Part shown: piece by piece, positions 3,351 through 58,583 of the stretch
How positions within the stretch are numbered: position 1 is the stretch's first letter
Layout of the letters: every line of letters begins with the position of its first letter
From: Mustelus asterias
Lineage: Eukaryota
Reading direction: 5' to 3'
DNA length: 64,000 bases
Assembly (NCBI RefSeq): GCF_964213995.1
Contig: NC_135815.1
Span: 2,542,001-2,606,000 of the forward strand
Notes under the pieces: model-generated
What the model was told of the DNA's origin: nothing
Databases searched by the model: none
The model's input: only the letters and a program-made list of their open reading frames with translations
Made by a program: the position numbers and the translations under genes

Positions 3351-4011
3351 AACAAGAACACAGGGAAGTTGAGTGACACAGACCCACCTGTGAAATACTG
3401 ACCTCAGCATATAGGAAGAACGAGCAGGAATTGAATCCTTGAAAACTAATTTTTTTGGGAATGCCTGGCCCTCCACTCTCAGCTCTGACTCTGACCCTCT
3501 GCATGGCGGTGGGTAAGTAAACACCCAGAGTTGGGTCACCCAACCTGGGGCTGGTTTCCCATCATGATGTTTTGCAGTTTGATTCTCTGATTCTGGGTGG
3601 GTGATGTGTATTTTTTCGTTAGATATTTCTGTTTAAGCATTGTGATAGTTTGGGCTTTCTCGTGGTTCATTGGGAAAATACAGCGTCAGATCTCACACTG
3701 AGACACCCAGCCCAGTTACCCTGCTCTTAAACTCCACCGGGTGCAAATACACAGACACAAGCGTGTCAGCCTTCACGTTCAAACACCATTAAAAACACAT
3801 TGTCCAGGTTCACTGACGGGGAGCAGCTATTGAAGTGAGCTATCAGAAGGTTGACACGAGCTGTGGGATTACTTCCCAAGGGGAGATAGACGCCATCAGG
3901 GTGAGGGGAAGGAAACCATTGACTAGAAAGTAAAATGTAGCTCTGTCCACCAGTTCAGCAATGTGAGCTCTCCGAGTATCCGTGTAGTCCCACGGTGAAC
4001 CTTGCTGAATT

Positions 4012-7963: not shown

Positions 7964-9646
7964 ACGGAAAGGATAGCAGTTCATTTGGAAAGTCATAGTC
8001 TGATCAAACAGAGTCAGCATGGTTTTATGAAGGGGAAATAATGTCTGACAACTTTATGAGAGTTCTTTGAAGAGGTGTCAGCCAGAGTAGATAGGGGAGA
8101 ACAAGTCGATGTTGTATATGTGGATTTTCAAAAGGCATTTGATAAGGTGCCACACAAAAGGCTACTACACAAGACAGGAGCTCATGGTGTTGGAGGTAAT
8201 ATTCTGGCATGGATTGAGGATTGCTAGCTTATAAAATTCTAACAGGGTTAGACAGGGTAGATTCAGAAAAAATGTTCCCGATGGTGGGGGAGTCCAGAAC
8301 TAGGGGTCATAGTTTGAGGATAAGGGGTAAACCTTTTAGAACTGAGGTGGGGAGAAATTTCTTCATCCAGAGGGTGGTGAATGTGTGGAATTCACTACCA
8401 CAGAAAGTAGTTGAAGCCAAAACATTGTGTGATTTCAAGAAAAAATTAGATCTGGTTCTTGGGGCTAAAGGGATCAAGAGATATGGGACGAAGGGGGGAT
8501 CAGGATATTAAATTTGATGACCAGCCATGATCACAATGAATGGGGGAGCAGGTTCGAAGGGCTGAATGGCCTCCTCCTGCTTCCAGTTTTTATATTTCTA
8601 TATAACTAATAGGAAGCAGCGAGTCGCGATAAGGGGGTCTTTCTCAAGTTGGAAAGCGGTAACCAGTGGAGTGCCACAGGGATCAGTGTTGGGACTGCAG
8701 CTCTTTACAATATATATTAATGATTTGGGGGGAAGGAACAGAGTGTATTGTGGCCAAGTCTGTGGTTGATACAAAGGTGAGAGGGAAGGCAGCTTTTAAG
8801 GAGGATAGAAATAGTTTCCAGAGAGATATTGACAGGTTAGTGAGTGGGCAGCAAATTGGCAAATGAAATACAAAGCGGGAAAATGTGGGAGTGTTCATTT
8901 TGGAAGAAAGAATGAGAAGGCGGATTATTATTTAAATGGAGAGAGGCGGCAGAGGGACTTGGGGGGGTTCTCGTTCATGAAATCCAGAAAGCGAGTGTAC
9001 AGGGACAGAAGGTAATCGTGAAGGCAAATGGAATGCTGGCTTCTAGTTCAAGGGGGATGGGGTATAAAAGTAAAGAGGTGTTGCTGCAACTGAACAAGGC
9101 ACAAGGGAGGCCACATTTCAAATATTGTGTATAGTTTGGGTCTGCTCATTTCAGGAAAGATATATCACTGGGGGCAGCACAGAGAAGTGTTCCTGGGTAT
9201 GGAGGGACTGCCATTTGAGGAAAGGTGAAACAGGTTGGGACTGTACTCCTTGGGTTCAGAACAATGTGAGCTGATCTGATTGAAACATATCAGATTCTTC
9301 GGGGGTTCGCCAGGGTGAATGTTGGGAGGATGTTTCCACTCGTGGGAGAGTGTCAGACCAGACAGCAGAGTCGCAGAATGAGGGGGAGCTCATCTAAGAA
9401 GGATTTTAGGAAGAATTTGTTCTCTCAGAGAGTGGTGAATCTTTGGAATCTTTGCTCCAGGAAGCTGTGGAGACCGAGTCCTTGAACATTTTAAAGGCTG
9501 AGATCGATAGGTTTTTAATCAGTCGGGGAATTAAGGGTTATGGAGAGAAGGCAGGAAAGTAGACTTAGTGAGTGTTGGATCAGCCAGGATTTTATTAAAT
9601 GGCAGAACAGGCATCTATATCTTGTGGCATTATGGTTTCTTCACAG

Positions 9647-9993
9647 GTGTAGAGTTGGACACAGTTCCTTTCCAGTCACCTGAAGTTGTCAAGCTCCTTG
9701 AGGGTGGAACAGTAAAGCTTCAGTGTAACTTACAGAGCAGCAATGTGGATTACACTGTCGATTTATACAATGTACATTGGCTTTATCCACAAAATAAGGA
9801 CAGAATAATGGCTTTTTATACAAATGGCAGAGTTTACCGGTCAGAAGGATTCTCAGAGCGATTTCAGCTTTCCAGAGATGTTGCCAGTAACAGTTACAAT
9901 CTGACCATCAGAGATGTGCGGCTCAGTGACTCCAATGTCTATGTGGGATTTGGGGACGTATCCTTGGAAGTAGAAGCCGGCTGAATGTGACCA
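9647..9993 (+). pseudogene. Ig V-J type domain exon 1 (frameshifted just before the second Cys)
   Basis: Acceptor TTCACAG, phase 1. Reads VELDTVPFQSP...VKLQC...VHW...RFQLSRDVASNSYNLTIRDVRLSDSNVY, then after a ~4-bp deletion CGIWGRILGSRSRLNVT. Donor A|GTGAGT, phase 1. Confidence 0.85.
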
Positions 9994-10149
9994 GTGAGTA
10001 TTTTCTCTGTTATATTGCTTTTATACCAAATAATGTTATTACACAAGGACTGAGTTTAAAAACAGTAACTTGGTCAGAGGGAACTTTGTGAATCTTACTG
10101 AGAAGAGAGACAAGTTGCTGAATCTTTTCATCTTTTTCATCTTTTTAAG

Positions 10150-10480
10150 AATGTTCCAGATGGTGGGGGAGTCCAGAACTAGGGGTCATCGTTTGAGGAT
10201 AAGGGGTAAACCGTTTTGAATTAAGGTGAGGAGAAATTTCTTCACCCAGAGGGTGGTGAATCTGTGGAATTCACTCCCACAGAATGTAGTTGAGGCCAAA
10301 ATGTTGTGTGATTTCAAGAAGAAATTGGATACTGCTCTTGGGGGTAAAGGGATTAAGGGATTTCGGGGGAAGGGGGGATCAGGATATTGATTTCGATGAT
10401 CAGCCATGATCATAATGAATGGCAGAGCCGGCTCGAAGGGCCGAATGGCCTCCTCCTGCTTCTAGTTTCTACGTTTCTAT
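10150..10480 (+). mobile_element. CR1 3'-end fragment
   Basis: ESRTRGH...RNFFTQRVVNLWNSLP motif plus tail. Confidence 0.85.
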
Positions 10481-10814
10481 CTTGCACTCATCAGGACAAA
10501 CACCAGAAAACCAAATTGCAAATGGTTGCAACAACTCATAGTAGAGGAGAAAAAGGTGCTAATTGGTTGGGTAGTTGAATTTAATTGACTGAACTAGTGC
10601 CAGAGATAAAGCATCAGTTCCCCGAATCTCGGAGTAATTCAGAAAAAGTGCAAGTCTGGAGCATATTTCTCCTGTTTTTCAGAGGAAACAGAGAACCAAC
10701 GCGAGCCCCACTTCCTTTTTGGAATGTGTACATTGTGTGACCCTTCAGGGCTTCATATGTCAATCATGGGCCTTACCCTGGTACCAAGGACCCCTCTATC
10801 ACTGATGGAAGGCT

Positions 10815-11270
10815 GGCAGTTCTCCAAGGTGACCTTCACAACACATGACAACGCAGAATCACCGAGCAAAATCTGATAGCCAAGTTCCGCTCACATGAGG
10901 ACGGTCTCAACAAGGATCTTGGGTTCATGTCACACTATCTTTAACCCCACGACTTGCCTGGGCTTGCAAAATCTCACTAACTGTCCTGGCTGGTGACGAT
11001 ACACACCTCTTTAACCTGTGCTTCACCCTCTCTCCACTCACATTGTCTGTACCTTTAAGACTTGATTACCTGTAAAGACTCGCATTCCAACCATTACCTT
11101 GTAAATTGAGTTTGTGTCTGTATATGCCCTGTTTGTGAACACAACTCCTCACTCACCTGAAGAAGGAGCAAGACTCCGAAAGCTTGTGCTGCCAAATAAA
11201 CCTGTTGGACTTTAACCTGGTGTTGTGAGACTGTCCCCACCCCAGTCCAATGCCGGCATCTTCAAATCAA
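10815..11270 (+). mobile_element. Penelope-like 3' fragment (end of GIY-YIG ORF plus terminal repeat with hammerhead at 11154-11188)
   Basis: EQNLIAKFRSHEDGLNKDLGFMSHY; homologous to 50608-51228. Confidence 0.85.
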
Positions 11271-11342
11271 GTTCTCTTAAAAACAGGGATAGACTGTAAC
11301 CTTGAAACTTGTTTTTAAATTGTTGATATTTTTCCCTCAAAG

Positions 11343-11687
11343 GTGCAAATATTCCAGTCCTTACCCAGTCTCCGAGTGTGGAACGTGTCACAGAGGGTCA
11401 GACTGCACGGTTACAGTGCACCATGGGGAACGCTGCAGTGACAGGCACTGATGTTCACTGGTACGGGGAGCTACCTGGAAAAGATAGGGAGAGAGTTTTA
11501 ACACTGGATACAGGGAATCACATACTCCGGAGCCCAGCTTTCACTGAGCGTTTCCAGCCTTCCAGAGACACCTCCAATAACAGCTTCATTCTGACAATCA
11601 CCATGGTGCAGCCCAGTGACACTGCCGTCTATTACTGCTCAGTGTGGGGAAGGGTCTGGGGTAAAGGAAGCTGGCTGAATGTAATCA
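11343..11687 (+). CDS. Ig V-J type domain exon 2 (open frame)
   Basis: Acceptor TTTTTCCCTCAAAG, phase 1. Reads ANIPVLTQSP...ARLQC...VHWY...RFQPSRDTSNNSFILTI...DTAVYYCSVWGRVWGKGSWLNVI. Donor is A|GCAAGT (GC variant). Confidence 0.88.
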
Positions 11688-12339
11688 GCAAGTCCAGTTT
11701 ACAGGATTCTCATTAATCTTCATCCAACGTGTCATGTCTTATAGTTCCCAGAAGTCTGAAATATTCACACTTTTGGACACAAAGCTTGCTGCATTTAACC
11801 ACAGAGCCACAGCAATGTGGTTAAATGCTCTCAGAACAAAGGCAATTAGGGATGGGCAATAAATGCTGGCTTAGCCAGTGACACCCACATCCGATCAAAG
11901 AAACAAAATCTTTTGTTTAAAAAAAACTGATGTCGCTTTATATCAACATTAACTTCCAGTCATTAACTTGTTTTTAACTCTGAACTTTAAACTCTGTTAT
12001 AGATTGTGTTCTATTAGTTGTGATATCGCTCAGTAGGTACAATGCTGTGGATGTAATAGTCTTTGCTCTCAGTGATGTGCTGTGTGGGTGATACTGGACC
12101 CAGTGCCCCTGTTGCTGGTGTTGGACTTGTTGCTGATGTATTACTTGTTAGTGTCAGTGATGAAGCACTGATTCTGTCGATGTTGTCTCGCTGACCAGTG
12201 ATATTCTTGGTGTTTGAATATGCGCTCAACTCTGACTCATTTACTAATCAGATTCTGACTCAGTGATGCATGGTTTTGGATTCACTTCTTCACCAACAAC
12301 ATTTGCTGGGTTGCTGGTTTTCTGAATTGCATCCTGTAT

Positions 12340-13360
12340 ATGGAGTGCGGTTACAAGTGGTGTACCTCAGGGATCTGTTTTGGGGCCACTGCTGTTTGTA
12401 ATATTTATTAATGATCTGGATGAGGGTATAGTTGGGTGGATTAGCAAATTTGCTGATGACACCAAAGTCGGTGGTGTGGTAGACAGTGAGGAAGGGTGTC
12501 GTAGTTTGCAGGAAGACTTAGACAGGTTGCAAAGTTGGGCCGAGAGGTGGCGGATGGAGTTTAATGCGGAGAAGTGTGAGGTAATTCACTTTGGTAGGAA
12601 TAACAGATGTGTTGAGTATAGGGCTAACGGGAGGACTTTGAATAGTGTGGAGGAGCAGAGGGATCTAGGTGTATGTGTGCATAGATCCCTGAAAGTTGGG
12701 AATCAAGTAGATAAGGTTGTTAAGAAGGCATATGGTGTCTTGGCGTTTATTGGTAGGGGGATTGAATTTAGGAGTCGTAGCGTTATGTTGCAACTGTACA
12801 CAACTCTGGTGCGGCCGCACTTGGAGTACTGTGTGCAGTTCTGGCCCCCACATTACAGGAAGGATGTGGAGGCTTTGGAGAGGGTGCAGAGGAGGTTTAC
12901 CAGGATGTTGCCTGGTATGGAGGGGAGATCCTATGAGGAGAGGCTGAGGGATTTGGGATTGTTTTCGCTGGAAAGGCGGCGGCTAAGAGGGGATCTTATT
13001 GAAACATATAAGATGATTAGAGGTTTAGATAGGGTGGATAGTGATAGCCTTTTTCCTCTGATGGAGAAATCCAGCACGAGGGGGCATGGCTTTAAATTGA
13101 GGGGGGGTAGTTATAGAACCGATGTCAGGGGTAGGTTCTTTACCCAGAGGGTGGTGAGGGATTGGAATGCCCTGCCAGCATCAGTAGTAAATGCGCCTAG
13201 TTTGGGGGCGTTTAAGAGATCCGTAGATAGGTTCATGGACGAAAAGAAATTGGTTTAGGTTGGAGGGTCACAGTTTTTTTTTAACTGGTCGGTGCAACAT
13301 CGTGGGCCGAAGGGCCTGTTCTGCGCTGTAATGTTCTATGTTCTATGTTCTATGTTCTAT
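12340..13360 (+). mobile_element. CR1 3' fragment with open RT C-terminal half
   Basis: ORF 12380..13258 (FADD, RPHLEYC); (TGTTCTA)n tail. Confidence 0.95.
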
Positions 13361-13569
13361 ATGTGCAGCTTGTCTTGTTAACAGCGCAGCTTGCGGTTTA
13401 CCATGCTTATTGAAGTATTGTCATCCTGCAACCTGTGCCTCAGTGATTCACTGCTTTATTTCCTCCTGGTCACTGGGAGGGAGTGTCTTTCTTGACAAAG
13501 TTGTCTTGTATTTTCTTCCATTCAGCAGCTCTGAAGATGATTTCACGTCATTCTTGAGAGATGTAGATT

Positions 13570-13850
13570 GGTTTGATTTGATTTGATTTGATTTATTATT
13601 GTCACATGTATTCGCATACAGTGAAAAGTATTGTTTCCTGCGCGCTATACAGACAAAGCATACCATTCATAGAGAAGGAAAGGAGAGAGTGCAGAATGTA
13701 GTGTTACAGTCATAGCTAGGGTGTAGAGAAAGATCGACTTAATGCAAGATAATCCATTCAAAAGTCTGACAGCAGCAGGGAAGAAGCTGTTCTTGAGTCG
13801 GCTGGTACGTGTCCTCAGACTTTTGTATCTTTTTCTCTACAGAAGAAGGA
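13570..13850 (-). mobile_element. Rex1/Babar-type LINE 3' fragment
   Basis: Reverse complement of the tail seen at 47180-47675 and 61160-61790 (RLKNSFFP, (TCAAA)n). Confidence 0.7.
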
Positions 13851-14122
13851 TTGACAATAAGGCATGATTTGGATCTTCCTTTGTCTCTCAGCTTCTCTTG
13901 ACCATCTGGATGTGTCATTCTCTAAACCCGTGTCCGCTCGGGTAATGGGGTGATGAGATGATAATGTTGGTCACACTGTTCAGAGAATTTCTTAAACTCT
14001 CAGGAGGCGAATTCTGTTCTATTGTCACACATTATACTTTCACAAATCATTTCTCGGTGAACAGAATGCATTCTGCTGAGATGGTTGTTTCAGCTTTCAA
14101 TGTCCTAACAATGTGAGAGGTT

Positions 14123-15922
14123 GTCAAAAGAAAAAGGAGTGGTTTGCACATGTAGATTCAAAGTAACGCACAACAGGTTTATTAAAAGAGATTTTAAACT
14201 GAAACTAAAACAGCGGCCTGTGCAACACCCTCATGACATCACCATCAAATCATGTGATTTTCTAATAAGACATTCATGCAACTACTTAAGTATATAACAT
14301 CCCTCCCCCTTTACTTCTGTGGTCATGACAATAGATTACTTTAATGTTATATATCGGATCAATAATACTCTAGACACAGTCTCTGGAATTCCACTGCCTC
14401 GCTTGTCATGGAATTGGAATGGGTGAGATGTGGACAATGGAAATGTCCATTAGTTTCAGGTGGAAACGTCTGCTCTTGCTCGAGTGAGGCTGCAAATCCC
14501 GCCCGGTATTATACATCATTAATCATTGTGTACAGTCAGTATAAAAGTCAATCTGGAGACACCTACTGCTCTTTGGCTGCATACAAGTTGTTCTTGACCC
14601 GAGGAGTATGATTTGGAATTCCAGTGGACACTTTTTTCTCTTGGAACTAACTCTACCTCATTCTCATGTGGTATAGTAGCAAAGACACCATCGTCAGGCA
14701 ACTCAGATTCAACTAACTCTTCCATAGCACCATTCACAACACCAGAGATGAGAGAAGTTTGTACTTCTGGAGATGATTTGGAGAAATCAGTTCAAGATGA
14801 CAATTGGTCAGCATGGCGATGGCAAACTAGTTCATCTTCAGTTTGAACCGCCTAAGAATCTGCACCTGTTTTTGCTAAACCTATAGCTAGCACTCATTTC
14901 TCACTCATGGCATAATTACCACAAACGTTCCATCTCCTTATTGAAATGTGCGTTGTTTTGCCGTCGCTTCTCATCCAGCAACTTGAGATTGTTGTTGACG
15001 CTCTACTATCTCTGCAGTCTCTGGAGTTAATCCCTGGAGTTTCAGATAAAGCTCGGCACAACATCGTGGGCCGAAGGGCCTGTTCTGTGCTGTACTGTTC
15101 TATGTTCTATGTTTAATAACAAATCAAATGTAGCTCTCAATTTTCTCTTTAAGAGTATTAATGAAGGAAAGCTTTGGGTAGCATGGTGGCACAGTGATTA
15201 GCATTGAGGTCTCACAGCGCTAGGGACCCGGGTTCGATTCTGGCCTCGGGTCACTGCCTGTGTGCCGTTTGCACATCCTCCCCGTGTCTGTGTGGGTTTC
15301 CTCCGGGTGTTCCGGTTTCCTCCCACACTCCAAAGATGTGCGGGTTAGGTTGATTGGCCGTGCTAAATTGCCCCTTAGTGTCAGGGAGATTAGCAGGGTA
15401 AATATATGTGGTTAGGGGGATAGGGCCTGGGTTGGTGCAGACTCGATGGGCCGAGTGGCCTCTTTCTGCACTGTAGGATTCTATGATTGAAGATTGAATT
15501 GCCAGTGCGGGAAGACCAAGTAAGAAAAATCTGTGTGTGTGGTTTTAAAAGAGGGCTTTTGTTTCAGATCAGAGAAGGGTGAGATTCCAGGCTTCTGCTA
15601 TTCAATGTGTGAGGACCCATAATGTTTCTTTCTTCTCCTCAGTATCATTTCTCAATGTTCTCAATGCAACAAAATCCCAACTCAGTACCAATTTTCTTTT
15701 TGCAATGTCCTAACTATGTTAGGGGCTGTGGGTTTTAAACAAAAAGACAATACTTGGTTTGCCCAAGTCGATTAAAGTAACACAAACAGTTTTATTAAAA
15801 GAGATGTTGCCTGTACAGAGGACAAACTGAAACAGCAGCCTGTGCAACACCCTAAAGTCATCACGAATCACTCATGTGACTGAGTCTTAAAGCAATCATG
15901 CAACTACTTAAATATATAACAT
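14123..15922 (-). mobile_element. Old, deleted Gypsy-like LTR element with two diverged LTR-like repeats
   Basis: Related repeats at ~14123-14299 and ~15715-15922, both ending TATATAACA; polypurine tract at 14300-14312 on the minus strand; integrase-like remnant RKLRATFDL near 15120-15147. Confidence 0.55.
15177..15490 (+). mobile_element. tRNA-derived V-SINE (HE1-like)
   Basis: A box TGGCACAGTG, B box GGTTCGATTC, V-domain core GTGTCTGTGTGGGTTTCCTCCGGG. Confidence 0.85.
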
Positions 15923-16116
15923 AACTCTCAAATCCTTCACTTGGCAGATAAAGGGGAACTTTGAGTAATGGTCTCCTATTGTGAGATCGCATTCTTGATT
16001 GATCGTGTGTGGGGAAAACAGCTCCCACAGTAAGCCATGGTCTGGCTAGTTCATTGACTATTATTTCCTTCTGCTCTGTATTTCTATACTTCTGGCATAA
16101 CTGCATGTGGACCGTG

Positions 16117-16277
16117 GCCAGAATTCTCCCGCCGTTCACGCCGGTGGGATTTTCCAGTCCCACTGGCAGTGCACTCCTGCCCGAGGGTTTCCTATTCACA
16201 GCGGCGGGACAGAGAACCCTGCTGCTATCAAACAATGCGCCACCTCCCACCAGCGGGAGGCTGGAGAATCTTGCCCC
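16117..16277. mobile_element. Short MITE-like element
   Basis: Imperfect TIRs GGCCAGAATTCTCC / GGAGAATCTTGCCC; related element at 19537-19740. Confidence 0.55.
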
Positions 16278-16774
16278 ATATTTTCAATGTCTTTGTAGAT
16301 GCTGTTAGAATGTAACCACTGACAACTTTGTATTGGATGTAATGTGACCAATGATAACAAGCTGTATGAGTCAGCTGACCCAGCAAACCATGGAACCAAT
16401 TACAGAATGATGTGATGGTCAGCTGACCAACTGACTCAACTATAAATAAGAACCTGTTGGGAATTGAGGGAAATTTGATTGGCTCAGAGCAAGGCCGCAT
16501 GTTTGGAGTCATGAAATTTATTTATTAAACCCTTTCTTTGATTTATAATTTGGAGTAAGTTTTGTTCTATTTTTGTTGTCTGCATTTGAAGAATTCCTCC
16601 TGAAGAAACAGATGCCTATCCAGTCCCCAGCTAATCTGGCTCTGAGCTGCCCCATTCCCATGCGGCCTTTTGTATATCTTCTGGAGAAGATTTTCTCATA
16701 TGGTTTTGGGTTTGATTATGCTGGATCTGGCTAACAGAACACCATCTTCCTGTGAGATGTCATCTCTGATGTAC

Positions 16775-17570
16775 ATCTCATATGAGGAGAGATTTAGTCA
16801 GTTAGAATTATGTTCACTGGAGTTTAGAAGAGTGAGAGGGGATCTCATAGAAAGTTATAACATTCTAACAGGGTTAGAGAGGGTAATCACAGAAACCCGA
16901 CAGTGCAGAAAGAGGCCATTTGGCCCATCGAGTCTGCACCGATCACAATCCCACCCAGGCCCTACCCCCATATCCCTACATATTTACCCGCTAATCCCTC
17001 TAACTTACACATCCCAGGACACTAAGGGGCAATTTTAGCATGGCCAATCAACTTAACCCGCACATCTTTGGACTGTGGGAGGAAACCAGAGCACTCGGAG
17101 GAAACCCACGCAGACACGAGGAGAATGTGCAATACTCCACACAGACAGTGACCCAAGCCGGGAATCAAACCCAGCTCCCTGGAGCTGTGAAGCAGCAGTG
17201 CTAACCACTGTGTTACCGTGCCACCCCACGATTCAGAAAGAATGTTCCCAATGGTGGGGGAATCCAGAACTAGGGATCATAGTTTGAGGATAAGGGGTAA
17301 ACCTTTTGAAACTGAGTCGGGGAGAAATTTCTTCACCCAGAGGGTGGTGAATGTGTGGAATTCACTCCCACAGAATGTAACTGAGGCCAAAACTTTGTCT
17401 GATTTCAAGAAGAAATTAGATATAGCTCTTGGGACTAAAGGGATCAAGGGATATGGGAGGAAGGGGGGAATCAGGATATTGAATTTGATGATCAGCCATG
17501 ATCAAAATGAATGGTGGAGCAGGCTCAAAGGGCTGAATGGCCTCCTCCTGCCTCTAGTTTCTATGTTTCT
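16775..17570 (+). mobile_element. CR1 3' fragment with a V-SINE (-) inserted at ~16886-17229
   Basis: SYEERFSQLELCSLEFRRVRGDL...GLERV | DSERMFPMVGESRTR is continuous across the SINE. Confidence 0.85.
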
Positions 17571-18190
17571 ATGACAGCTAATGTGGGATTACCGCTGGTT
17601 TGCTGCATCAGGCCATCACTGGATCATTTACTGAGAGAGTTTCTGCAACTCCACATCTTCACTGCTCCCAGGTCTGATTGGACACAGCTTTGGTGCTGAT
17701 GGATCTTTATATTTGAATCTTTCTTCTCATGTTTCACATGTGAGGAGTTGTGACATCTGCTGTTTGCTATCTGCCAAGCCAGCTTGTGACAGAGACACCG
17801 AGACCAGGTAGAGAAAGGTTATTGCTCAGTGCTCAGTTGCCCAATCTGCTCCAGTGGGAATGATCATTCTCCTCTACAAGCTGCCCCCTCGCCCCCCCCT
17901 CCCCCCTGCTCCCCGGGAACATGGCAATTAAACATGATCAAGTTGAATAATGGGGCAGTCTCGTGGGGCTGAATGACCTACTCTTGTTCCTGTGTTGGGC
18001 TCTTCCTTGTTAATGTTATAACCACACTACTTTAATCTCTCCGATAACCTTTTCCAATTGAAAGAAGATTGATTCTGAGACTATTATCATTATTTTGAGA
18101 CTGAGGTCACATGGTCAGTGTTATTTTGTGGATGTGAGTGTCTATAGCACTGTGTATAATCTGCAGTAATGTGAGATTCTGTGCCCACAG

Positions 18191-18232
18191 GTCAGGCACA
18201 CAGAGGTTGCAGCCAAATCTCACAGGCAGCAG
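18191..18232 (+). CDS. Stalk/hinge mini-exon of the Ig receptor, (S)QAHRGCSQISQAA
   Basis: CCCACAG| 42 bp |GTAACC, phase 1-1, stop-free and in frame with the flanking exons; contains one Cys. Confidence 0.6.
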
Positions 18233-18647
18233 GTAACCCAGTAATATCTCTGGGTCTGCAGTGTTGTTAAAACTCTTACTGTGTTCACCCCAGTCCAACG
18301 CCGGCATCTCCACATCATGACTGCCATCTGCAGAGTGATCCATCAACACTCACTCTGCATTAGCATTCTTCCATTGAATTTATCTCCATCTTGCTAACTA
18401 ATCTGTTTGACATTTCCTCTTCCTATGAGGAGAACTTTACCTTCATCTCTGTTCCCATTGCGCTGCCGTTCCTCAACTCAACCCTTCAATTTCTTTAACA
18501 ATCTTCAGCTTGATAAATTTAGCGATGTCAGTCACATGATACACAACACAAATCCAAAATCATTCTCCTACGTTGTGAGGTTTGTGTGGACGGAGGGAAC
18601 CCTCTTGAACATCTGATGCTCATTTTCCCTCCATCTTTGGAACTGTG

Positions 18648-18975
18648 GGCCAGCACGGTGGCACAGTGGTTAGCACTGCTGCTGCACAGTGCCAGGGACC
18701 CAAGTTCGATTCCCAGCATGGGTCAATGTCTGTTTGGAGTCTGCACGTTCTCCCTGTGTCTGCGTTGGTTTCCTCTGCGTGCTCTGGTTTTGTCCCACAA
18801 TCCAAAGATGTGCGGGTTAGGTGGATTGGCCATGCTAAATTCCCCCTTCGCATCAGGGGGATTAGCTAGAGTAAATGCATGGGGTTTTGGGGATAAGACC
18901 TGGGTGGGATTGTGGTCGGTGCAGACTCGATGGGCCGAATAGCTTCTTCTGCACCTTAGAATTCTATGATTCCAT
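18648..18975 (+). mobile_element. V-SINE (HE1-like)
   Basis: tRNA head with A/B boxes, V core and CR1-like tail. Confidence 0.85.
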
Positions 18976-19237
18976 GATTTACAGCCTCGATCAATCAAAT
19001 TGTCGGGTCAGCAAGAATGCCCAGCAAGTATTCAGTGTGTGGTATCAGACTGAGATTTTACATTCTATACAATCAAACGGAACGCGAGTTACTCTCATTC
19101 TCATTCCAAGTGCTCTGCTCAATCTGACTCCACCCTGATTTTATTTTTCTGTTTTTCCCATTTCAGATTTCATTGCCTGAAGAAAATTGAATTAATTCCC
19201 TGGTCTTTAACCTTAAACATCTGATTTTGTTTCACAG

Positions 19238-19351
19238 TAACAGACCACACTGGGAAGCTGAAGCTTACCTGGACCGTTCTGGGTGCTCTGTCAGGAGTTA
19301 CTGGAACAACTTTACTCACTGGATTCGTACTGTTTAGAACAAAACAATCCT
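19238..19351 (+). CDS. Transmembrane exon of the Ig receptor, (V)TDHTGKLKLTWTVLGALSGVTGTTLLTGFVLFRTKQS
   Basis: Acceptor TTTTGTTTCACAG, phase 1; uncharged ~24-aa segment followed by R-T-K; donor T|GTAGGT keeps phase 1. Confidence 0.65.
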
Positions 19352-19399
19352 GTAGGTGTGACAAAATAATTCAGTTTGTCTCGATTATTCTGTATCGAT

Positions 19400-19850
19400 T
19401 TTTAATTTGTTTATGGGATGTGGACATCATTGAAAAGACCAGCATCAATTGTTAATTTCCCTTGAGGGCAGTTAAGAGTCAACCACATTGTGGTGGGTCT
19501 GGAGTTACAAGTAGGCCAGACCAGGTAAGGACAACAGGGTTGGAATCCTCCGGCCGTTCTGGTGAGCGGGATTCTCCGGTCCGCCCAGTAGCGCTCCCCC
19601 ACTAACGGGTTTCGCAGTGGCGTGGGGTGACACCAATGGGAATTCCCATTGACAGTGGCAGGATCAGAGAATCCCACCACCAGCGAACAGCACACTGCCT
19701 CCTGCCTAGAAACAGGTAGGAAGCCGCAGAATCCCGCCCCAGATTTCCTTCCTTAAAGGACATTAGTGAATGGGATTTTAGTACAAACTGTGATAGTTTT
19801 GTGGTCACCATTACTGAGACAAGCTTCATATTCCAGAGTTTGTTGAATTA
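19400..19850 (-). mobile_element. DeuSINE/SacSINE1-like fragment with an inserted MITE, followed by a short Penelope fold-back (19852-19985)
   Basis: Shares core sequence with 46835-47175. Confidence 0.65.
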
Positions 19851-20191
19851 AGATGATGTGGAGATACCAGCGTTGGACTGGGGTGGGCACAGTAAGGAAT
19901 CTCACAAAACCAGGTTAAATTCCAACAGGTTTTATCCAAAAAAGCCTGTTGGACTTTAACCTAGTGTTGTGAGACTTCTTACTGTTGTTTATTTAAGGAA
20001 TTGGATTTGAAGATAATGGTGGGATTTGTAACCTCATTGGCAGCACTGGTCACGATGTCAATCCTCACTAAATTATCAAAGGACAGAACAAATTGTTTAA
20101 GAACCTGTGAGGAATGAAATGATGCCGTCAGCTGATCAATGTGATGAACATTGTGTTTGATGTTGGTGTGATTTTGTAATTCATTCCACAG

Positions 20192-20244
20192 CAGCTAATG
20201 ATCCAAACACAAGCACAGATTACGAACATATGAGATCCTCACGG
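20192..20244 (+). CDS. Cytoplasmic exon of the Ig receptor, (S)ANDPNTSTDYEHMRSSR
   Basis: Acceptor TTCCACAG, phase 1; donor CGG|GTGGGT; contains YxxM. Confidence 0.55.
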
Positions 20245-20649: not shown

Positions 20650-21070
20650 GGTCAGAGTGATGTTACTGGCCAGTCTGTAATGGTCAGAGTGATGTTACTG
20701 GCCAGTCTGTAATGGTCAGAAGGACATTACAGACCAGTCTATATCGCTCAGAGTGATGTTACTGGCCAGTCTGTAATGGTCAGAGTGATGTTACTGGCCA
20801 GTCTGTAATGGTCAGAAGGACATTACAGACCAGTCTGTATTGGCCAGAGTGATGTTACTGGCCAGTCTGTAATGGTCAGAGTGATGTTACTGGCCAGTCT
20901 GTAATGGTCAGAAGGACATTACAGACCAGTCTATATCGCTCAGAGTGATGTTACTGGCCAGTCTGTAATGGTCAGTGATGTTACTGGCCAGTCTGTAATG
21001 GTCAGAAGGACATTACAGACCAGTCTATATCACTCAGAGTGATGTTACTGGCCAGTCTGTAATGGTCAGA
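20650..21070. repeat. 32-bp minisatellite with A-A-B higher-order periodicity
   Basis: A = GGTCAGAGTGATGTTACTGGCCAGTCTGTAAT, B = GGTCAGAAGGACATTACAGACCAGTCTATATC. Confidence 0.9.
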
Positions 21071-22553
21071 GGGATGATGCTGTCGGATTTCTCGCTCTAT
21101 CTGGCCCAGCCTCCTGTCTCTCTGAGCCAATTACTGAACCCTGAGTCCTCACCACCTCGAAAACTCAGACAAAATCCAACATTTGTCACACTTTCACAAG
21201 ATTGCTTTTGATAACTGCTTAAGTTTTACTTTGTTCACACAGACAATAAATAAACAGTTGCCAGCTGGACACAGGAGAAACCCTTCAGTGAGATCTTGTT
21301 CTGGGCAATAGAACATATGAGGAACATTCCGAGCCGATGTGATGATACTGTGCCTTTAAGAAATGTATTATAATCATGTTTCTCTGCACAATGTTTATCG
21401 GCACCGTGTTGTCTGCAGCCAGTGTCCTTTAGTGTAACTGAAGCAGTATAATTGTTATCATGCTCATTTGAATCTGAACTAATGCAGAGTCCTGTGATTT
21501 TAATGGTCTCTTTTGGGATTGGAGAGTGGAGCTTGATTGGGGGTGATTGACAAGTCATGTCAGGTGACTGAGGGACGGCTCTCTTTCAAACAGCATTCTC
21601 GTTTTAGTTTTGCTTTCAGAAGCTGCTTGAAGCTCAGAGAAACAGCTTCCCTCTCTCTGGAGTTAGGGTCATTGTTTTGAAGTGGTGATGTGTTGGAAGC
21701 TGCCAGTAACTGGGTTTACCTCTCTGAGGTTGTGCTGTTTTGAGGATATAACCTTCTCTGCAAACTTCTGGCATTTCTATCCATAGGTAGTTACAAAGCT
21801 GAAAATCCAGCATTATGGATATGTGTGGGTGTCACAGGGTAGTTGTCATGGGGGACTTTAACTTTCCAAATATTGATTGGAACTTTGTAGGTCAAATAGT
21901 TCGGATGGGGCAGGTTTTGTGCAGTGTGTGCAGGAGGGTTTCCTGACACAATATGTGGATAGCCCGACAAGAGGTGAGGCCACATTGGATTTGGTACTGG
22001 GAAATAAACCGGGCCAAGTGTTAGGTTTGGTTGTGGGACAGCACTTTGGAGATACTGACCACAATTCGGTGTCTTTTGTTATTGCAATGGAGAGGGATAG
22101 GGCCGTACAGCAGGGCAAGGTTTACAATTGGGGGAGAGGTAATTATGATGCGATTAGGCAAGAATTAGGGGGCATAAGATGGGAACAGAAACTGTCAGGG
22201 AAAGGCACTAATGAAAAGTGGAACTTTTTCAAGGAACAAATACTGGGTGTCCTTGATAGGTATGTCCCTGTCAGGCAGGGAGGAAATGGCCGAGTGAGGG
22301 AACCATGGTTCACAAAAGAGGTGGAATGTCTTGTGAAAAGGAAGAGGGAAGCTTATGTAGGGATGAGGAAACAAGGTTCAGATGGCTCGATTGAGGGTTA
22401 CAAGTTAGCAAGGAATGAGCTGAAAAAGGGGCTTAGGAGAGCTAGGAGGGGACATGAGAAGTCCTTGGCGGGTCGGATCAAGGAAAATCCCAAGGCTTTT
22501 TACTCTTATGCGAGGAATAAAAGAATGACCGGGGTGAGGTTAGGGCCGGTCAA

Positions 22554-25500
22554 GCTCTGGCTGGGAGCTTTGCTAATGCAGTTCGGGGGGGTTTAAACTA
22601 GTATGGCAGGGGGGTGGGGATCAAACTATTAGGTCTATAAGTGTGGTGGCTGGGGACGAGCTTGGGGCTGGGACAAGGCTGGCAAAGAAGAAGAGCACTC
22701 TGGGGGAGGACGACCTCACTGAGCCTGGGGGTCTGGAGTGCTTATACTTCAATGCAAGGAGCGTAGCAGGTAAAACAGACGAACTTGGGGCCTTAATGCG
22801 CACGAGGAATTTGGATGTGGTTGCGGTGACAGAGACTTGGTTGAAAGAGGGACAGGACTGGCAGCTGAATATTCCAGGGTACAAGTGTTTTAGGCGAGAC
22901 AGAGGAGGGGCCAAAAGAGGTGGGGGAGTAGCGGTATTGGTTGGAGAGCATATTACAGCGGTGCAGAGGGAGGACAATTCGGAGGAGTCGTGTAGCGAGT
23001 CACTCTGGGTGGAGCTTAGAAACAGGAAAGGCGCAGTCACTATGTTGGGGGTGTACTACAGGCCCCCCAACAGCCCAAGGGAAGTGGAAGAATGGATATG
23101 TCAGGAGATACTGGATAGGTGCAGGAAATATAGGGTTGTTGTAGTGGGAGACTTCAATTTCCCTGGTATAGACTGGAAATCGCTGAGGGCAGGGACTCTG
23201 GATGGGGAGGAATTTGTAAAATGTGTACAGGAGGGTTCGTTGGAACAATATGTGGACAGCCCGACTAGAGAGGGGGCTATACTGGACCTGGTACTGGGGA
23301 ATGAGCCCGGTCAGGTCTTCAAAGTTTTGGTTGGGGAACATGTGGCAAATAGTGACCACAATTCTGTTAGCTTTAGGATAGTGATGGAAAAGGATGAGTG
23401 GTGTCCCAAGGGTAAGGTGTTGGATTGGGGGAAGGCTAACTTTATTGGGATAAGGCAGAAATTGGCAGCTCTTGATTGGGAGAGGCTGTTTGAGGGTAAA
23501 TCCACATCTGGTATGTGGCAGTCTTTTAAGGAACGGTTGTTAGGGCTACAGGACAAGCATGTGCCTGTAAAAAAGAAGGATAGGAAGGGTAGGATTAGGG
23601 AACCGTGGATAACCAGGGAAATTGAGGGACTGGTCAAAAGGAAAAGAGAGGTGTATGTTAGGTCCAATCAGCTAAAAACGGAGGGAGCTCTGGAGGAGTA
23701 CAATGAAAGTAGGAAAATACTCAAACGGGGAATTAGAAGAGCAAAAAGGGGTCACGAAATGTTCTTGGCAGACAGGATTAAGGAGAATCCCAAGGCATTT
23801 TATTCATACGTTAGGAACAAAAGGGTTGTTAGGGAAAAAATCGGACCTCTCAGGGACAAAAGTGGGGACTTATGCTTGGAGCCCAAAGAGGTAGGGGAGA
23901 TCCTAAATGAATACTTTGCGTCGGTATTCACAAAGGAGAGGGATGTGTTGACTGGGAGTGTCTCGGAGGGGAGTGTTGAACCGTTGGAGAAAATCTCCAT
24001 TACAAAGGAGGAAGTGTTAGGTTTGTTAGAGAATATAAAGACTGACAAATCCCCAGGGCCTGATGGAATCTATCCAAGGCTGCTCAGGGAGACGAGAGGT
24101 GAAATCGTTGGGCCTCTGACGCAAATCTTTGTCTCGTCACTGGACACAGGTGAGGTCCCAGAGGATTGGAGGATAGCCAATGTGGTCCCGTTATTTAAGA
24201 AGGGTAGGAAGGATAACCCGGGTAATTATAGGCCGGTGAGCTTGACGTCCGTGGTGGGGAAGTTGTTGGAGAAGATTCTTAAAGATAGGATGTATGCGCA
24301 TTTAGAAAGGAATAAACTCATTAACGATAGTCAACATGGTTTTGTGAGAGGGAGGTCATGCCTCACTAACCTGGTGGTGTTTATTGAAGAAGTGACCAAA
24401 ATGGTTGACGAAGGAAGGGCCGTGGATGTTGTCTATATGGACTTTAGTAAAGCGTTTGACAAAGTCCCTCATGGTAGGCTAGTGAAAAAGGTTGGATCCC
24501 ATGGGATAAAGGGGGAGGTGGCTAGATGGGTGGAGAACTGGCTTGGTCATAGAAGACAGAGGGTGGTAGTGGAAGGGTCTTTTTCCGGCTGGAGGCCTGT
24601 GACTAGTGGTGTACCGCAGGGCTCTGTATTGGGACCTCTACTGTTTGTGATTTATATAAATGATCTGGAAGAAGGAGTAACTGGGGTGATCAGTAAGTTT
24701 GCGGACGACACAAAACTGGCAGGACTTGCAGATAGTGAGGAACATTGTCAGAGGCTACAGAAGGATATAGATAGGCTGGAAATTTGGGCAAGGAAATGGC
24801 AGATGGAGTTCAATCCTGATGAATGCGAAGTGATGCATTTTGGTGGGAATAATGTAAGGAGGAGCTACACGATAAATGGCAGAACCATAAAGGGTGTAGA
24901 GACACAGAGGGACCTGGGTGTGCAAGTCCACAGATCTTTGAAGGTGACGTCACAGGTGGAGAAGGTGGTGAAGAAGGCATATGGCATGCTTGCCTTTATA
25001 GGACGGGGCATAGAGTATAAAAGTTGGGGTCTGATGTTGCAGATGTATAGAACGTTGGTTCGGCCGCATTTGGAATACTGCGTCCAGTTCTGGTCGCCAC
25101 ACTACCAGAAGGACGTGGAGGCTTTGGAGAGAGTACAGAGGAGGTTTACCAGGATGTTGCCTGGTATGGAGGGGCTTGGTTATGAGGAGAGATTGGGGAA
25201 ACTGGGGTTGTTCTCCTTGGAAAGACGAAGGATGAGGGGAGACTTAATAGAGGTGTATAAAATTATGAAAGGCATAGATAGGGTGAACGGTGGGAAGCTT
25301 TTCCCCGGGTCGGTGGTGACGTTCACGAGGGGTCATAGGTTCAAGGTGAAGGGGGGGAGGTTTAACACAGATATCAGAAGGACATATTTCACACAGAGGG
25401 TTGTGGGGGCCTGGAATGTGTTGCCGGGCAAGGTGGTGGAGGCGGACACACTGGGAACGTTTAAGACTTATCTAGACAGCTATATGAACGGAGTGGGAAT

Positions 25501-37769: not shown

Positions 37770-38940
37770 TCACAAGTCCAGACGGTCTGGAGGACCACAC
37801 CGACGCTGCGATCTTCTCAACACCGGTTGCGAAACCGGAGCAGGTGCTTGCGGTGGCTCTCTCAAAACAACATCTGGCTGTCCCCTCAAAGACTCCCGGG
37901 CCGGCCGGCCCTGATGAGGCGATGGTGTAGGGGATCCTGGAACGTTTGGTGGTGGTGGTGGTGGTGATGATGGTGGCGCCGATCTCCGAGTCTCAGGCAA
38001 GCTGTACATGGGAGTAAAAGTGTTATGCACTGGTCCCGGTGCTGACCGCGCCACGTCTGGGGAAGTAATGAGGAGTAGTGGATCTGTGACTGGGGGAATA
38101 GGAGCGACAGGAGTTGCTACGTCCCCTGCGGGCGCCAGGTCTCTAATGGAGACAGTGTCCTCTCGCCCGTCAGGATATGCCACATAGGCATACTGAGGGT
38201 TGGCGTGGAGGAGTTGGACCGGTTCGACCAAGGGGTCGGACTTGCGAGCCCTCACATGGCGCCGCAGAAGGACGGGTCCTGGGTACGTCAACCAGGCTGG
38301 CAATGAGGTCCCCGAGGACGACTTCCGAGGGAATGAGAACATCCTCTCGTGGGGAGTAGCATTGGTTGCCGTACACAGGAGGGAGCGGATAGAATGGAGC
38401 GCAGTTGGAAGGACCTCCTGCCACCGGGAGACTGGAAGGCCCTTGGATTTCAGTGCCAGTAGGACAGCCTTCCAGACTGTAGCATTCTCCCTTTCCACCT
38501 GTCCGTTACCCCTAGGGTTGTAGCTCGTGGTTCTACTAGAGGCAATCCCGAATGAGAGCAGGAATTGCCTCAAGTCGTTGCTCATGAACGACGAGCCCCT
38601 GTCGCTATGAATATAGCAGGGGTACCCGAACAGGGTAAAAAGCTCACTGAATGCCTTGATGACGGTGGCAGTCGACGTGTCCGCACAGGGGAAAACAAAC
38701 GGAAACTGGGAAAATTCGTCTATTATGTTAAGAAAATAGACATTCCGATCCGTTGAGGGAAGGGGGCCCTTAAAATCTACACTCAGCCTCTCAAAAGGGC
38801 GAGTGGCCTTGACCAAATGTGCCCGGTCTGGTCGATAAAAGTGTGGTTTGCATTCTGCGCAAATCCGACAACTTCTAGTAACTGACCTGACCTCCTCCAC
38901 CGAGTAGGGTAGGTTGCGGGCTTTTATGAAGTTCAGTGAG
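37770..38940 (-). CDS. Gypsy integrase (N-terminal HH lost, out of frame with RT)
   Basis: CRIC, VDFKGP, IHSDRG, GQVER (DDE core). Confidence 0.9.
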
Positions 38941-54191: not shown

Positions 54192-54758
<567 letters not shown>

Positions 54759-54958
54759 NNNNNNNNNNNNNNNNNNNNNNNNNNNNNNNNNNNNNNNNNN
54801 NNNNNNNNNNNNNNNNNNNNNNNNNNNNNNNNNNNNNNNNNNNNNNNNNNNNNNNNNNNNNNNNNNNNNNNNNNNNNNNNNNNNNNNNNNNNNNNNNNNN
54901 NNNNNNNNNNNNNNNNNNNNNNNNNNNNNNNNNNNNNNNNNNNNNNNNNNNNNNNNNN
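54759..54958. other. Assembly gap (200 N) in the last CHRNA2 intron
   Basis: N run flanked by GA/CT low-complexity sequence. Confidence 0.99.
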
Positions 54959-56299
54959 CTCCCCTCCCCTCCCCTCTACTCCCCTCCCCTCTACTCCCAG
55001 GGAGATCTTCGTGGAAATGTGCTATAGGCCTGACAGGGTCATCATGAAATGTCTAATCATGTCTCCGCTGATCTGTAAGACGGAGTTTGTAACATATTGG
55101 ATGGGTTGCAGTTTGGAAAAGCATCAGAAATTGGATAATCTTCGGATGGTGCAATGAACAGATGAAAGTCCGTGCGGATTTCTGTCACTCTGTTCAATGA
55201 CACGGATTGGGTTTCGCCCCCCAACAACCCACCCCCCCCCCCCCGCTCCCTCCCACCCCCCCGCTCCCACCCCAACCCCCCCGCTCCCTCCCACCCCCAA
55301 CCCCCCTCCCCCACCCCCTCACTAACTCAGCAAACCCCTTCACTGCTCATTGGCCTGGAGGAGATCCCGATACCCTGGACTGAGGATTTTACAGAGGATT
55401 GGTCCCGATACACCCAGTCTGGGATTCACTGTTTCACCCACTGTCCTTGCACAATCAGGACCGGTGCCGGTGCCGGCAGCAACTCCTGGAGGACAGAACT
55501 TGGAACTCTGGAGAAACAGCCAGCGTGCAATGAGCAATCATTAACTGAGATTATTCCCAGTGGATCGAGCAACTCTGTTTCTCGGGAAGGGATTTTGTTA
55601 ACCATTTGCCACGTTAGACTCAGAGTCTGGAAATTATTTCCTGCGTCCAGTTAACCATTTTCCCCTTTTAATGATGTCAACATTTATTCCTCTATCAATT
55701 CCTCAGCTCTTGGTTAACCATTTCCCATTGGAGACTTTGGTCTTTGCAGTCACAAACATTTTCCGTTGATGATTTTGTGTCAGGTTTGCAGTTTTCAACC
55801 TCACTCTTTCCTTGATTTTCAGTTTCTCATTAACCCTTTCTTGACTTGGTCTCTACATACAGTTTTCAGCTTTTTCAATGTATTTATTTATGGGGATGTA
55901 GGTGTCATTGGCTAGGTCAGTATTTGTTCCTCATCCCTAATTGCCCCTTGAGAAGATGGTGGTGACCCGCCTTCTTGAACCTCCGTAGTCTGTGTGGTGT
56001 AGGTACACCTACAGTGCAGTTAGGGAGGGAGTTCCAGGACTTTGACCCAGTGACAGTGAAAGTATGGTGATATATTTAATGTTGAATTTAATGGTATCAA
56101 GATCACTATTTCTTGCTGAATTTTGTACAGATTACTGCTTACCTCATTGTCCAATCTAAAATATCTGTGTCACCAGTTGGTTCCACAACATATTGACTCT
56201 TGCTATTCCTAATCTCCACCTATACTGACGCTACTTCCTCATTTCCTCAACCAAGATCCTTTCTCATGAATGTCCTTATGGTATCCTTTATTATCAGGT

Positions 56300-57430
56300 T
56301 CAAAAACTAAAATTACGTGGGATTTCGGGTGGGCTGGCCAGATGGATACAGACCTGGCTTGGTTATAGAAGACAGAGTAGCGGTGGAAGGGTGTTTTTCA
56401 GAATGGAGATCTGTAGCTAGCGGTGTTCCGGAGGGATCAGTGCTGGGACCTCTGTAGTTTGAAGTATATATAAGTGATCTGGACGAAAATGTGGGTAGTC
56501 TGATCAGTAAATTTGGGGATGACATCAAGATTGGTGGAGTTGCTGATAGTGCTGGGGATTGTCAGAGGATACAACAGGATATTGATAGATTGGAAAGCTG
56601 GGCACAGAAATGGCAGATGGAGTTTAATCTGGACAAATGCGAGTGATGCATTTTGGAGGATCAAATTTACCTGTGAATTACACTGTAAATGGCAGAACCC
56701 TTAGGAACATTAACATACAGAGGGATCTGGGCGTACAGGTCCATAGTTTCCTAAAAGTGGCAACACAGGTGGCCAAGGTGAATAAGAAAACATATGGCCT
56801 GTTGCCTTCATCGGCCAGGGCATTGAGTACGTGAGTTGGGAAATCAAGTTGCAGCTATATGAAACCTTGGTTTGGCCACATTTGGAGTATTGCGTGCAGT
56901 TCTGGTCACCACACTACCAGAAGGACGTGGAAGCTTTGCAGAGAGTGCAGAGAAGGTTCACCAGGATGTTGCCTGGTCTCGAGGGTGTTGGCTATGAGGA
57001 GAGATTGAATAGACTGGGATTGTTTTCACTGGCAAGGCGGAGGCTGAGAGGAGACCTGATAGAGGTCTACAAAATTATGAGAGGCACAGACAGGGTGGAT
57101 AGTCAGAGGCTTTTTCAAAGTGTGGAAGTGTCAATTACAAGGGGGCACAGGTTCAAGGTGAGAAGGGGAAAGTTAAGGGAAGTTTTTCACGCAAAGAGTG
57201 GTGGGTGCCTGGAACACGCTGCCAGAGGAGGTGGTGGAAGCAGGCACATTAGCAATTTTTAAGAGGCATCTGGATGGATACAAGGATAGGGAAAGAATAG
57301 AGGGATTCGGACCAAGTAAGGACAGAAGGTTTTTTTTAGTTTAGTTAGGGCATCATGATCAACACAGATTTGGAGGGCCGAAGGGCCTGTTCCTGTGCTG
57401 TAATTTTCTTCGTCCTTTGTTCTTTCTTTG
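56300..57430 (+). mobile_element. CR1 3' fragment (intronic)
   Basis: Degraded RT motifs and tail. Confidence 0.9.
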
Positions 57431-57550
57431 TACCCTTCCTCCTTTGGTATTCTGTCAGTCTTTTTAGAAATATCATGCACCCCAGACTATTTACTTCCCA
57501 ACCTTGGTCACCTTGTAACCATGTCTCTCCCCACCAGCAGCAACACTTAC

Positions 57551-58583
57551 TGAAAAGTCAGCATCCTCGGCTCGGAGATGGTTGGCGATGTAGTGTACTC
57601 CCTCCAGGGCTCTGATGATGCTGGGTGAGAGCAGCAGGGTGGGTTCCGCCTGGGTGCCATTATTCAGACTGCTTCTCTGGCTGTGATTGGCTCTCCCAGC
57701 TGGATACCGGTTGGGTTCATGGCGACACTGGTATCCGTGACTGTGGTGGCCCATTGTCCTGGGGTGACACAGGGGCAGGCTGAAACAGGGGGCCTCGGGC
57801 TCTGTTTGGGGGGAGCATCGCGGGGGGCTAAGCTTCAGCTCCAGCAGGCTGAAGTGATTGGTGAAGGTTTCCGTCTTGGGTCCAGGCCTCTTCATGAAGA
57901 GCCAGCGAGGAATGAAATCCAGGAAGACCTTCCGTACCCACCTGGGCATCTTGTGTGTGTTGGGCGAGCGATGATGGACGTTGAGGACAAAGACGGTGAT
58001 AACAATGGAGAGGGTGACAAAGATCATGGTGAACAGTAGGTATTCACCGATTAGCGGGATGACGAGGGAGGTGGAGGGGATGATCTCTGTTATAAGCAGC
58101 AGGAAGACAGTGAGAGACAGCAACACCGATATGCAAAGCGTGATCTTCTCTCCGCAGCCTGATGGTAAATAGAAGACCAAGACAGTCAGACAGGAGATGA
58201 GCAAACAGGGAATGATGAGGTTAATGGTATAGAAGAGGGGAAGTCTCCTGATAATGAAGGAGTATGTGATATCGACATACACCTCAGAGCAACAGTCATA
58301 CTTCTTGCTGTTGTAAATTCCCACAGCGTTGACTATTGCCCACTCGCCACTCTCCCAATAGTCCTTCAGATCCACGTTCCTGCCCATGCTCCTCAGATCA
58401 ATCTTGGACTTGTCGTGCGTCCAGGAGCCAAATTTCATTTTACAATTCTGCTGGTCGAATGGAAAGAATGTGACGTCAATACTACAGGAGCTCTTGTAGA
58501 TCGCCGGGGGCACCCACTGAACTCTGCCCGTGGAGTAGAGGTGAGCCTTGGTCATGTGGGTGACAGCAAACTCCCCGTCTGCA
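57551..58583 (-). CDS. CHRNA2: nAChR alpha-2 large exon (Cys-loop, loop C, M1-M3, intracellular loop)
   Basis: TTCCAG|(N)[15 protein letters not shown]...[19 protein letters not shown]...YDCC...AEDADFS|GTAAGT. Alpha-2-type residues and a short M3-M4 loop argue against alpha-4. Confidence 0.92.

Follow-up and report, generated by a model that had tools for sequence, protein, structure and literature searches.

The window analysed here, a 64,000-nucleotide stretch of the Mustelus asterias genome (contig NC_135815.1, positions 2,542,001 to 2,606,000, forward strand), carries a frameshifted and probably decaying copy of a receptor gene family of cartilaginous fishes, whose type I membrane proteins contain one to nine domains, each encoded by a single exon in which V and J parts of antigen-receptor type are joined (VJ). 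The domain itself likely stems from a V and a J segment of the immunoglobulin light chain (IgL) isotype sigma-2 that were fused in the germ line. We give about even chances to the wider proposal that RAG-mediated germline joining of sigma-2 V and J founded an undescribed family of paired receptors, more than 400 million years old and shared by all cartilaginous fish, with immunoreceptor tyrosine-based activation (ITAM) or inhibitory (ITIM) motifs. A germline-joined sigma-2 VJ giving rise to paired innate receptors is our best reading of the data; a relic predating RAG is less likely.

The two VJ exons of the window copy, V1 and V2, match the V-set Pfam model (E = 1.7e-11 and 1.8e-15, respectively). 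An original prediction, made from the letters of this DNA, had called two V-set exons with J-like ends in the same exon and a canonical V framework in each. The first point stands for both exons and the second for V2, whose V-set domain is open and has WGKGSWLNV at its end; in V1, the second Cys (Cys104) and the J end LGSRSRLNV lie in a different frame from the upstream part. The complementarity-determining region 3 (CDR3) of V2, SVWGRV, has the six residues that had been predicted, and no recombination signal sequence (RSS) with up to four mismatches was found within 9400-12000, again as expected. The transmembrane (TM) and first cytoplasmic exons, also foreseen, have AG acceptors and GT donors, and each is homologous to family members. 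PDB sequence and fold searches (model with a predicted local distance difference test score of 81.7) returned only generic antibody, TCR and VpreB V folds and do not discriminate among them. The broad assignment to a chondrichthyan, non-rearranging VJ membrane receptor gene is thus upheld, and the gene belongs to a multigene family for which we found no name.

Copy number and clustering, which the original prediction had left to genome searches, could be assessed both across species and in M. asterias itself. Database searches returned 91 and 122 family proteins from 22 elasmobranch species, sharks and rays included, and a search of representative sequences found members in Callorhinchus; the 150 top-scoring of 1.84 billion representatives included none from outside the cartilaginous fish. 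These proteins have one to nine tandem VJ domains running directly into the TM segment, with no C1 domain, and P0088 and P0089 are single-V members. A TM segment is present in 102 of 130 proteins, and only one of the 102 contains a charged residue there. Among these 102, counts that include isoforms and paralogues and so are not independent, 47 tails are of the immunoreceptor tyrosine-based switch motif (ITSM) type with TEYAxI-type ends, 26 are ITAM-spaced (YxxL-x6-8-YxxL), 35 carry YxN and 2 carry YxxM. A YxxM tail binding PI3K, as noted earlier for the window copy, is therefore not a family trait; YEHM in the window copy is a private change of DYEN[IV]. CDR3 has six residues in 287 of 292 family domain contexts. 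Position 118 is F in 36, S in 100 and Y in 98 of the 292 domains, compared to F or Y in 20 of 21 sigma-2 sequences, and position 87, before the Cys, is Y in 170 of 292 compared to 21 of 21. This degeneracy suggests that heavy-chain pairing has been lost. The database names of family proteins are "uncharacterized" or an arbitrary best match, and an Atlas search with homologue P0069 gave many generic V-set clusters and one NCR3-like cluster at 0.95. We found no published description or name for the family in a search that did not reach most of the subscription literature (among it shark NCR3, UrIg 2023, Ohta 2019, Flajnik 2012 on B7/NKp30), and five family gene ids are absent from two supplements of PMC12227049.

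In the M. asterias genome, 18 VJ exon matches (E ≤ 3e-11) lie on contig C15 in two blocks, at 1.55-1.67 and 2.32-2.55 Mb, with the window copy as the end member. When leader, TM and tail exons are mapped on C15, roughly six genes emerge, along with orphan exons. One intact two-V gene with a YxN tail is identical to the NCBI M. asterias protein P0059; the cluster also holds two genes with ITIM/ITSM tails and one with an ITAM-spaced exon pair (DPTYM / ALQQRPESIYSDL). V exons are 80-100% identical across the ITIM/ITSM, ITAM and YxN genes of this one cluster. Clustered genes, near-identical ectodomains and opposing tail motifs, the combination that marks paired activating and inhibitory receptors, are thus all present. 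By its TM and first tail exons, the window copy is classed with the members that combine DYEN with ITAM. Across seven paralogues, with few sites, nonsynonymous and synonymous differences (pN/pS) are 0.093/0.030 in the CDR-like loops and 0.035/0.052 in the framework; the excess of pN over pS in the loops fits a ligand-driven race. Exons of PTK2B lie inside the cluster (C15, 1.70-1.71 Mb), and a nicotinic acetylcholine receptor (nAChR) alpha-2/4 gene follows it, in the window. PTK2B and CHRNA2 are neighbours at human 8p21. All 140 matches to class I of the major histocompatibility complex (MHC) fall on contig C8 and none on C15.

One family V exon of this cluster (L011, G000:C15:1553198, minus strand) has lost its donor and reads on through NVTSEEILTNEIKQ-type repeats in an open frame of 1139 aa, possibly a mucin-like stalk. 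Protein P0075 of Rhinoraja (1999 aa) has a similar V-V-long-repeat build.

Outside the family, the best genome match (47%, E = 7e-23, against 6e-13 for the runner-up, with 150 of 1284 candidates scored) was an IgL V of split type on contig C23 that has a 12-RSS and a C exon; its relatives are shark and ray light chains. Among records of this IgL type, all 12 from batoids have J joined and 7 of the 11 from horn shark lack J. Since this agrees with the pattern given for sigma-2/type I in PMC5192425, we call it sigma-2 (also sigma-cart, type I or NS5). Profile score, DNA and tree all make it the nearest V. The family profile scored 94-130 bits per domain against sigma-2 IgL and 105.6 against coelacanth IgL, compared to at most 65 for every other V among P0126-P0279. 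V2 and the rearranging sigma-2 V of the same genome share 63% DNA identity in a nearly gap-free alignment (score 249.5, compared to ≤150.5 for seven controls), and V2 protein identity is 41-53% to elasmobranch sigma-2 versus 24-39% to lambda, IgH and TCR. In a tree with shark lambda, IgH and TCR from the same genome, the family and sigma-2 form one branch (96/89, starred); in this tree, the second of two, which used a subset of 19 family rows and left out a long VJ-C1 row, L022, coelacanth IgL adjoins the family (90/65). Family and sigma-2 have in common a VPVLxQSP start, the framework 3 string RFQPSRD-S-N-ILTI and a C-x-V-W start of CDR3. Framework 3 had been likened to VpreB, Ig-lambda and CD8; profile, tree, identity and DNA all point to sigma-2 instead. 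Because framework 3 is closest to sigma-2, secondary germline joining is favoured over the pre-RAG kinship toward which the original prediction leaned.

Other joined genes occur in the same genome. L022 itself (G000:C373:216948-217238, minus strand) is a single-exon VJ followed by one C1 exon (near 210978) that ends in a stop. Its V shares 45% identity with elasmobranch sigma-2 and sits on a long branch inside that clade, and the gene is either a diverged joined sigma-2-like or a PRARP-like one. A VJ cluster on C13 (60.07-61.32 Mb; L110-L119), considered as a source of family relatives, consists instead of germline-joined IgL lambda VJ-C genes with C exons and at least two diverged V subgroups. 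L020 (G000:C166:442807) is an IgH V exon that apparently is V-D-J joined in the germ line (…YYCARHVQQWGMGYWGQGTMVTV).

The window copy itself is damaged. V1 (347 nt) reads DSNVY-VGFGDVSLEVEAG-stop, and paralogues have four extra bases at the deletion site. The five phase-compatible exons once proposed do not survive this deletion, which breaks the frame and leads to the stop at 9982; that proposal had also overlooked the leader exon at 3461-3512. Because of the frameshift, the copy cannot make a V1-V2-TM protein. An assembly error as the cause was rejected, since the deletion form occurs in short-read contigs: a 117-nt contig (depth 29) from DNA run X19 matches it with 0 differences, showing that it is not a long-read error, although X19 may be the source of the assembly rather than an independent animal. 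A sister contig, present in both runs X19 and X20, carries the four bases along with five further differences. In X20 it extends into sequence unlike the window V1 intron, and so fits a paralogue or another haplotype. The V2 donor, ATCA/GCAAGT, is a GC site covered by an X19 contig of 239 nt that matches the window with 0 differences; GT is found in 13 of the 16 listed V exons of the cluster, window V2 having GC and two others being non-GT. The V1 branch in the tree is 0.30-0.33 long, compared to 0.07-0.13 for an intact paralogue. The proposed Cys-bearing stalk exon (42 nt) found no counterpart in a motif scan of the 130 family proteins and is single copy in the genome, and in the nearest homologues of this tail class V runs straight into the TM exon; we therefore set it aside. 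Neither a motif search nor alignment to the paralogue's exon revealed ITAM exons above chance in 20245-54000 (alignment score 24.5, shuffled 95th percentile 28.5), and TDQS words inside the minisatellite at 20650..21076 are not significant. Splicing the tentative last exon (21243..21311) directly to 20244 gives 22 aa in a different frame. In 18 sequencing runs guessed to be RNA, 0.05-0.13 of query words were present, possibly from repeats.

Over the 585 bp of positions 3425-4009, the leader region shares 98.5% identity with that of an intact paralogue 860 kb away, whereas V1 is only 80% identical to the same paralogue, which points to recent gene conversion or exon shuffling. This homology begins just 36 bp upstream of the ATG, so the paralogue's promoter was not carried along. 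With V1 included, the copy would at best yield a 129-aa truncated product, predicted to be a target of nonsense-mediated decay; with V1 skipped and the weak GC donor used, it would at best yield a one-domain form of 210-224 aa without ITAM. As judged from these lesions, the window copy is probably a decaying family member and considerably more likely dead than alive. It is of lesser importance in itself, and illustrates birth-and-death turnover in the cluster.

Several observations weigh against the reading given above. In the first tree, which included L022, had fewer shark outgroups and left out seven rows (one junk domain, near-duplicates and one partial), the family and sigma-2 join at only 52/84. 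The trees were built from data without NCR3, CD8, UrIg, PRARP, NITR, SIRP, shark kappa or shark sigma. Approximately unbiased (AU) tests rejected neither a sigma-2 monophyletic to the exclusion of the family (p = 0.25) nor all IgL to its exclusion (p = 0.074), so the family may have arisen within sigma-2 or be its sister. Averaged over all family subtypes, identity to elasmobranch sigma-2 is 38.7%, compared to 38.5% for shark lambda to sigma-2. Family architecture is taken from database gene models, with junctions predicted from sequence. A scan for an octamer found none upstream of the window copy's leader or of sigma-2 V, and is uninformative. Finally, intact V1-like sequence is present in the reads, and may represent an intact allele or an unassembled paralogue.

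In the scenario we propose, RAG would have acted in germ cells before chimaeras and elasmobranchs diverged, joining V and J of sigma-2 and trimming CDR3 to six residues. The joined exon would have lost its C exon, moved beside PTK2B, undergone tandem duplication and become attached, by shuffling, to several tails. In intact members, ligand would be bound by monomeric V domains, the Phe118 and Tyr87 of the VH-pairing face being often replaced, and signals would pass through the receptors' own tails. ITAM acts through Syk, ITIM/ITSM through SHP and YxN through Grb2. ITIM/ITSM tails are thus predicted to be inhibitory (SHP-type) and YxN tails to signal in Grb2 fashion, while tails with YxxL-x7-YxxL spacing are predicted to be activating (Syk-type), with no need of a charged TM residue.

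Genes with a single-exon VJ are commonly taken for remnants of the gene invaded by RAG. If our scenario is true, evolution here ran in the opposite direction, from adaptive to innate, with an antibody domain reverting to a fixed receptor; not every shark VJ exon need be primordial. Lee et al. (2000; PMC2193156) show RAG-type germline joining in nurse shark kappa genes and propose that such rejoining could turn a gene into a novel receptor, a hypothesis for which, they say, there was no direct example. The family would be the first concrete case of this 25-year-old prediction. It is also a candidate paired receptor system of natural killer/myeloid type for sharks, where few are known.

The family does not show the tested defining features of IgL, UrIg/PRARP, NCR3 or the CD28 family. 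Sigma-2 genes, often germline-joined according to PMC5985310 and PMC5192425, consist of VJ and one C1 exon, whereas the family, on C15 rather than C23, has tandem VJ exons, a TM segment and tyrosine-bearing tails. Its CDR3 is 6 rather than 8-11 residues, and the VH-pairing face (Tyr87, Phe118) is degenerate. UrIg and UrIg2, as described by Flajnik et al. 2025 (PMC12227049), are likewise elasmobranch non-rearranging single-exon VJ genes with a split leader, with 3-11 C1 domains and a place in the MHC or the IgH/TCR complex. Unlike these and PRARP-type genes, the family has V domains only, is multigene, carries signalling tails and sits in the PTK2B-nAChR interval. NCR3/NKp30 resembles it as a membrane receptor with a non-rearranging single-exon VJ; in mammals, NCR3/NKp30 has a charged TM and uses adaptors. 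In contrast, the family TM is uncharged in 101 of 102 and the motifs are intrinsic, a distinction drawn by description rather than by direct sequence comparison. NCR3 is also MHC-linked and basal to Ig/TCR V in PMC12227049. The family lies off the MHC class I contig. SIRP, NITR, NILT and, reportedly, hagfish APAR are likewise clustered, fast-evolving V-type receptors with opposing tails, and the TEYAxI ends recall SIRP-alpha and PD-1. However, the family has no C1 or I domains, its V traces to one rearranging IgL isotype, and the ITAM of its activating members, unlike in those receptors, seems to lie in the receptor's own tail. The CD28 family, including CD28H and CD28X, shares a YxxM-type motif with the window copy alone; its members have one V, a proline-rich CDR3 and other synteny blocks (PMC11599192), and YxxM is unconserved in our family.

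Two other readings of the family deserve weighing. The family and sigma-2 could be sisters descended from an unsplit pre-RAG VJ gene, making the receptors relics. Sigma-2 is joined in skates and, according to PMC5985310, in coelacanth, gar and turtles; coelacanth IgL falls beside the family (90/65) and the AU tests are compatible with a sister position. However, shark sigma-2 has an ordinary 12-RSS, which would require a second, independent RAG insertion, and RAG-type germline joining is documented for shark IgL (PMC2193156). Members beyond cartilaginous fish are lacking among the best 150 representatives, and the locus does not lie on the contig with the MHC class I matches, in contrast to the placement of NCR3 and UrIg in PMC12227049. 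Taken together, we regard such a relic as improbable. It is more doubtful still, indeed quite unlikely, that a description of the family already exists, the most plausible candidates being divergent subtypes of shark NCR3/NKp30 or some other named VJ family. Kinlein et al. in 2021 reportedly recognized such divergent NCR3 subtypes, and the single-exon VJ build and the NCR3-like Atlas cluster (0.95, amid many generic V-set clusters) would agree. Against it, the family groups with IgL sigma-2, while PMC12227049 gives NCR3 an MHC linkage and a place at the root of the V tree of antigen receptors; the family contig has 0 of 140 MHC class I matches, and database names are uninformative or arbitrary.

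For the window copy, the alternative to decay is a working one-domain receptor, made by skipping V1 and using the GC donor, in which YEHM recruits PI3K. The leader, V2, TM and first tail exons keep an open frame in matching phase, giving 210 or 224 aa, the leader is 98.5% identical to that of the intact paralogue, single-V members exist (P0088, P0089), and GC-AG introns do occur. But CA/GCAAGT is a weak GC donor site, the ITAM exons were not found in 20245-54000, and YxxM occurs in just 2 of 102 homologues. The absence of such a protein among 91 matches of 201-2000 aa adds a weak argument. We consider this form unlikely and keep to probable decay.

Table 1. Features of the window copy and its surroundings (positions within the window)
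Feature	Position	Strand	Remarks
Leader exon	3461..3512	+	MPGPPLSALTLTLCMAV-G, phase 1, donor GT; 100% match to the P0059 leader by tblastn
VJ exon 1 (V1), family type a	9647..9993	+	4-nt deletion ~9942, stop 9982, J motif G->R
VJ exon 2 (V2), family type b	11343..11687	+	frame open, CDR3 of 6 aa, splice donor GC
Putative stalk exon, unsupported	18191..18232	+	AG/GT sites in phase; without homologue
Transmembrane exon	19238..19351	+	no charged TM residue; ~50% identity to P0053/P0057/P0058/P0042; genome single copy
First cytoplasmic exon	20192..20244	+	DYEHM aligned with family DYEN[IV]; genome single copy
32/96-bp minisatellite (427 bp)	20650..21076	.	occupies the expected place of the tail class's two ITAM exons
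Tentative last exon	21243..21311	+	by eye possibly like the family G-N-K-Q-T-A-D-S end, Q->stop; weak alignment only
3' exons of neuronal nicotinic acetylcholine receptor alpha-2/alpha-4 subunit gene	54195..58582	-	neighbour gene, synteny marker

The window also contains mobile elements. Gag-pol and integrase frames of a Gypsy-type long terminal repeat retrotransposon occupy 37773-41262 (minus strand), another copy being found near 1.537-1.540 Mb of C15, and 22577-25522 (plus strand) holds a 982-aa open endonuclease/reverse transcriptase frame of a CR1-type long interspersed nuclear element, apparently young. Just outside the cluster (L103/L104, G000:C15:1487486-1499704, minus strand) lie long coiled-coil open frames of 509 and 224 aa.

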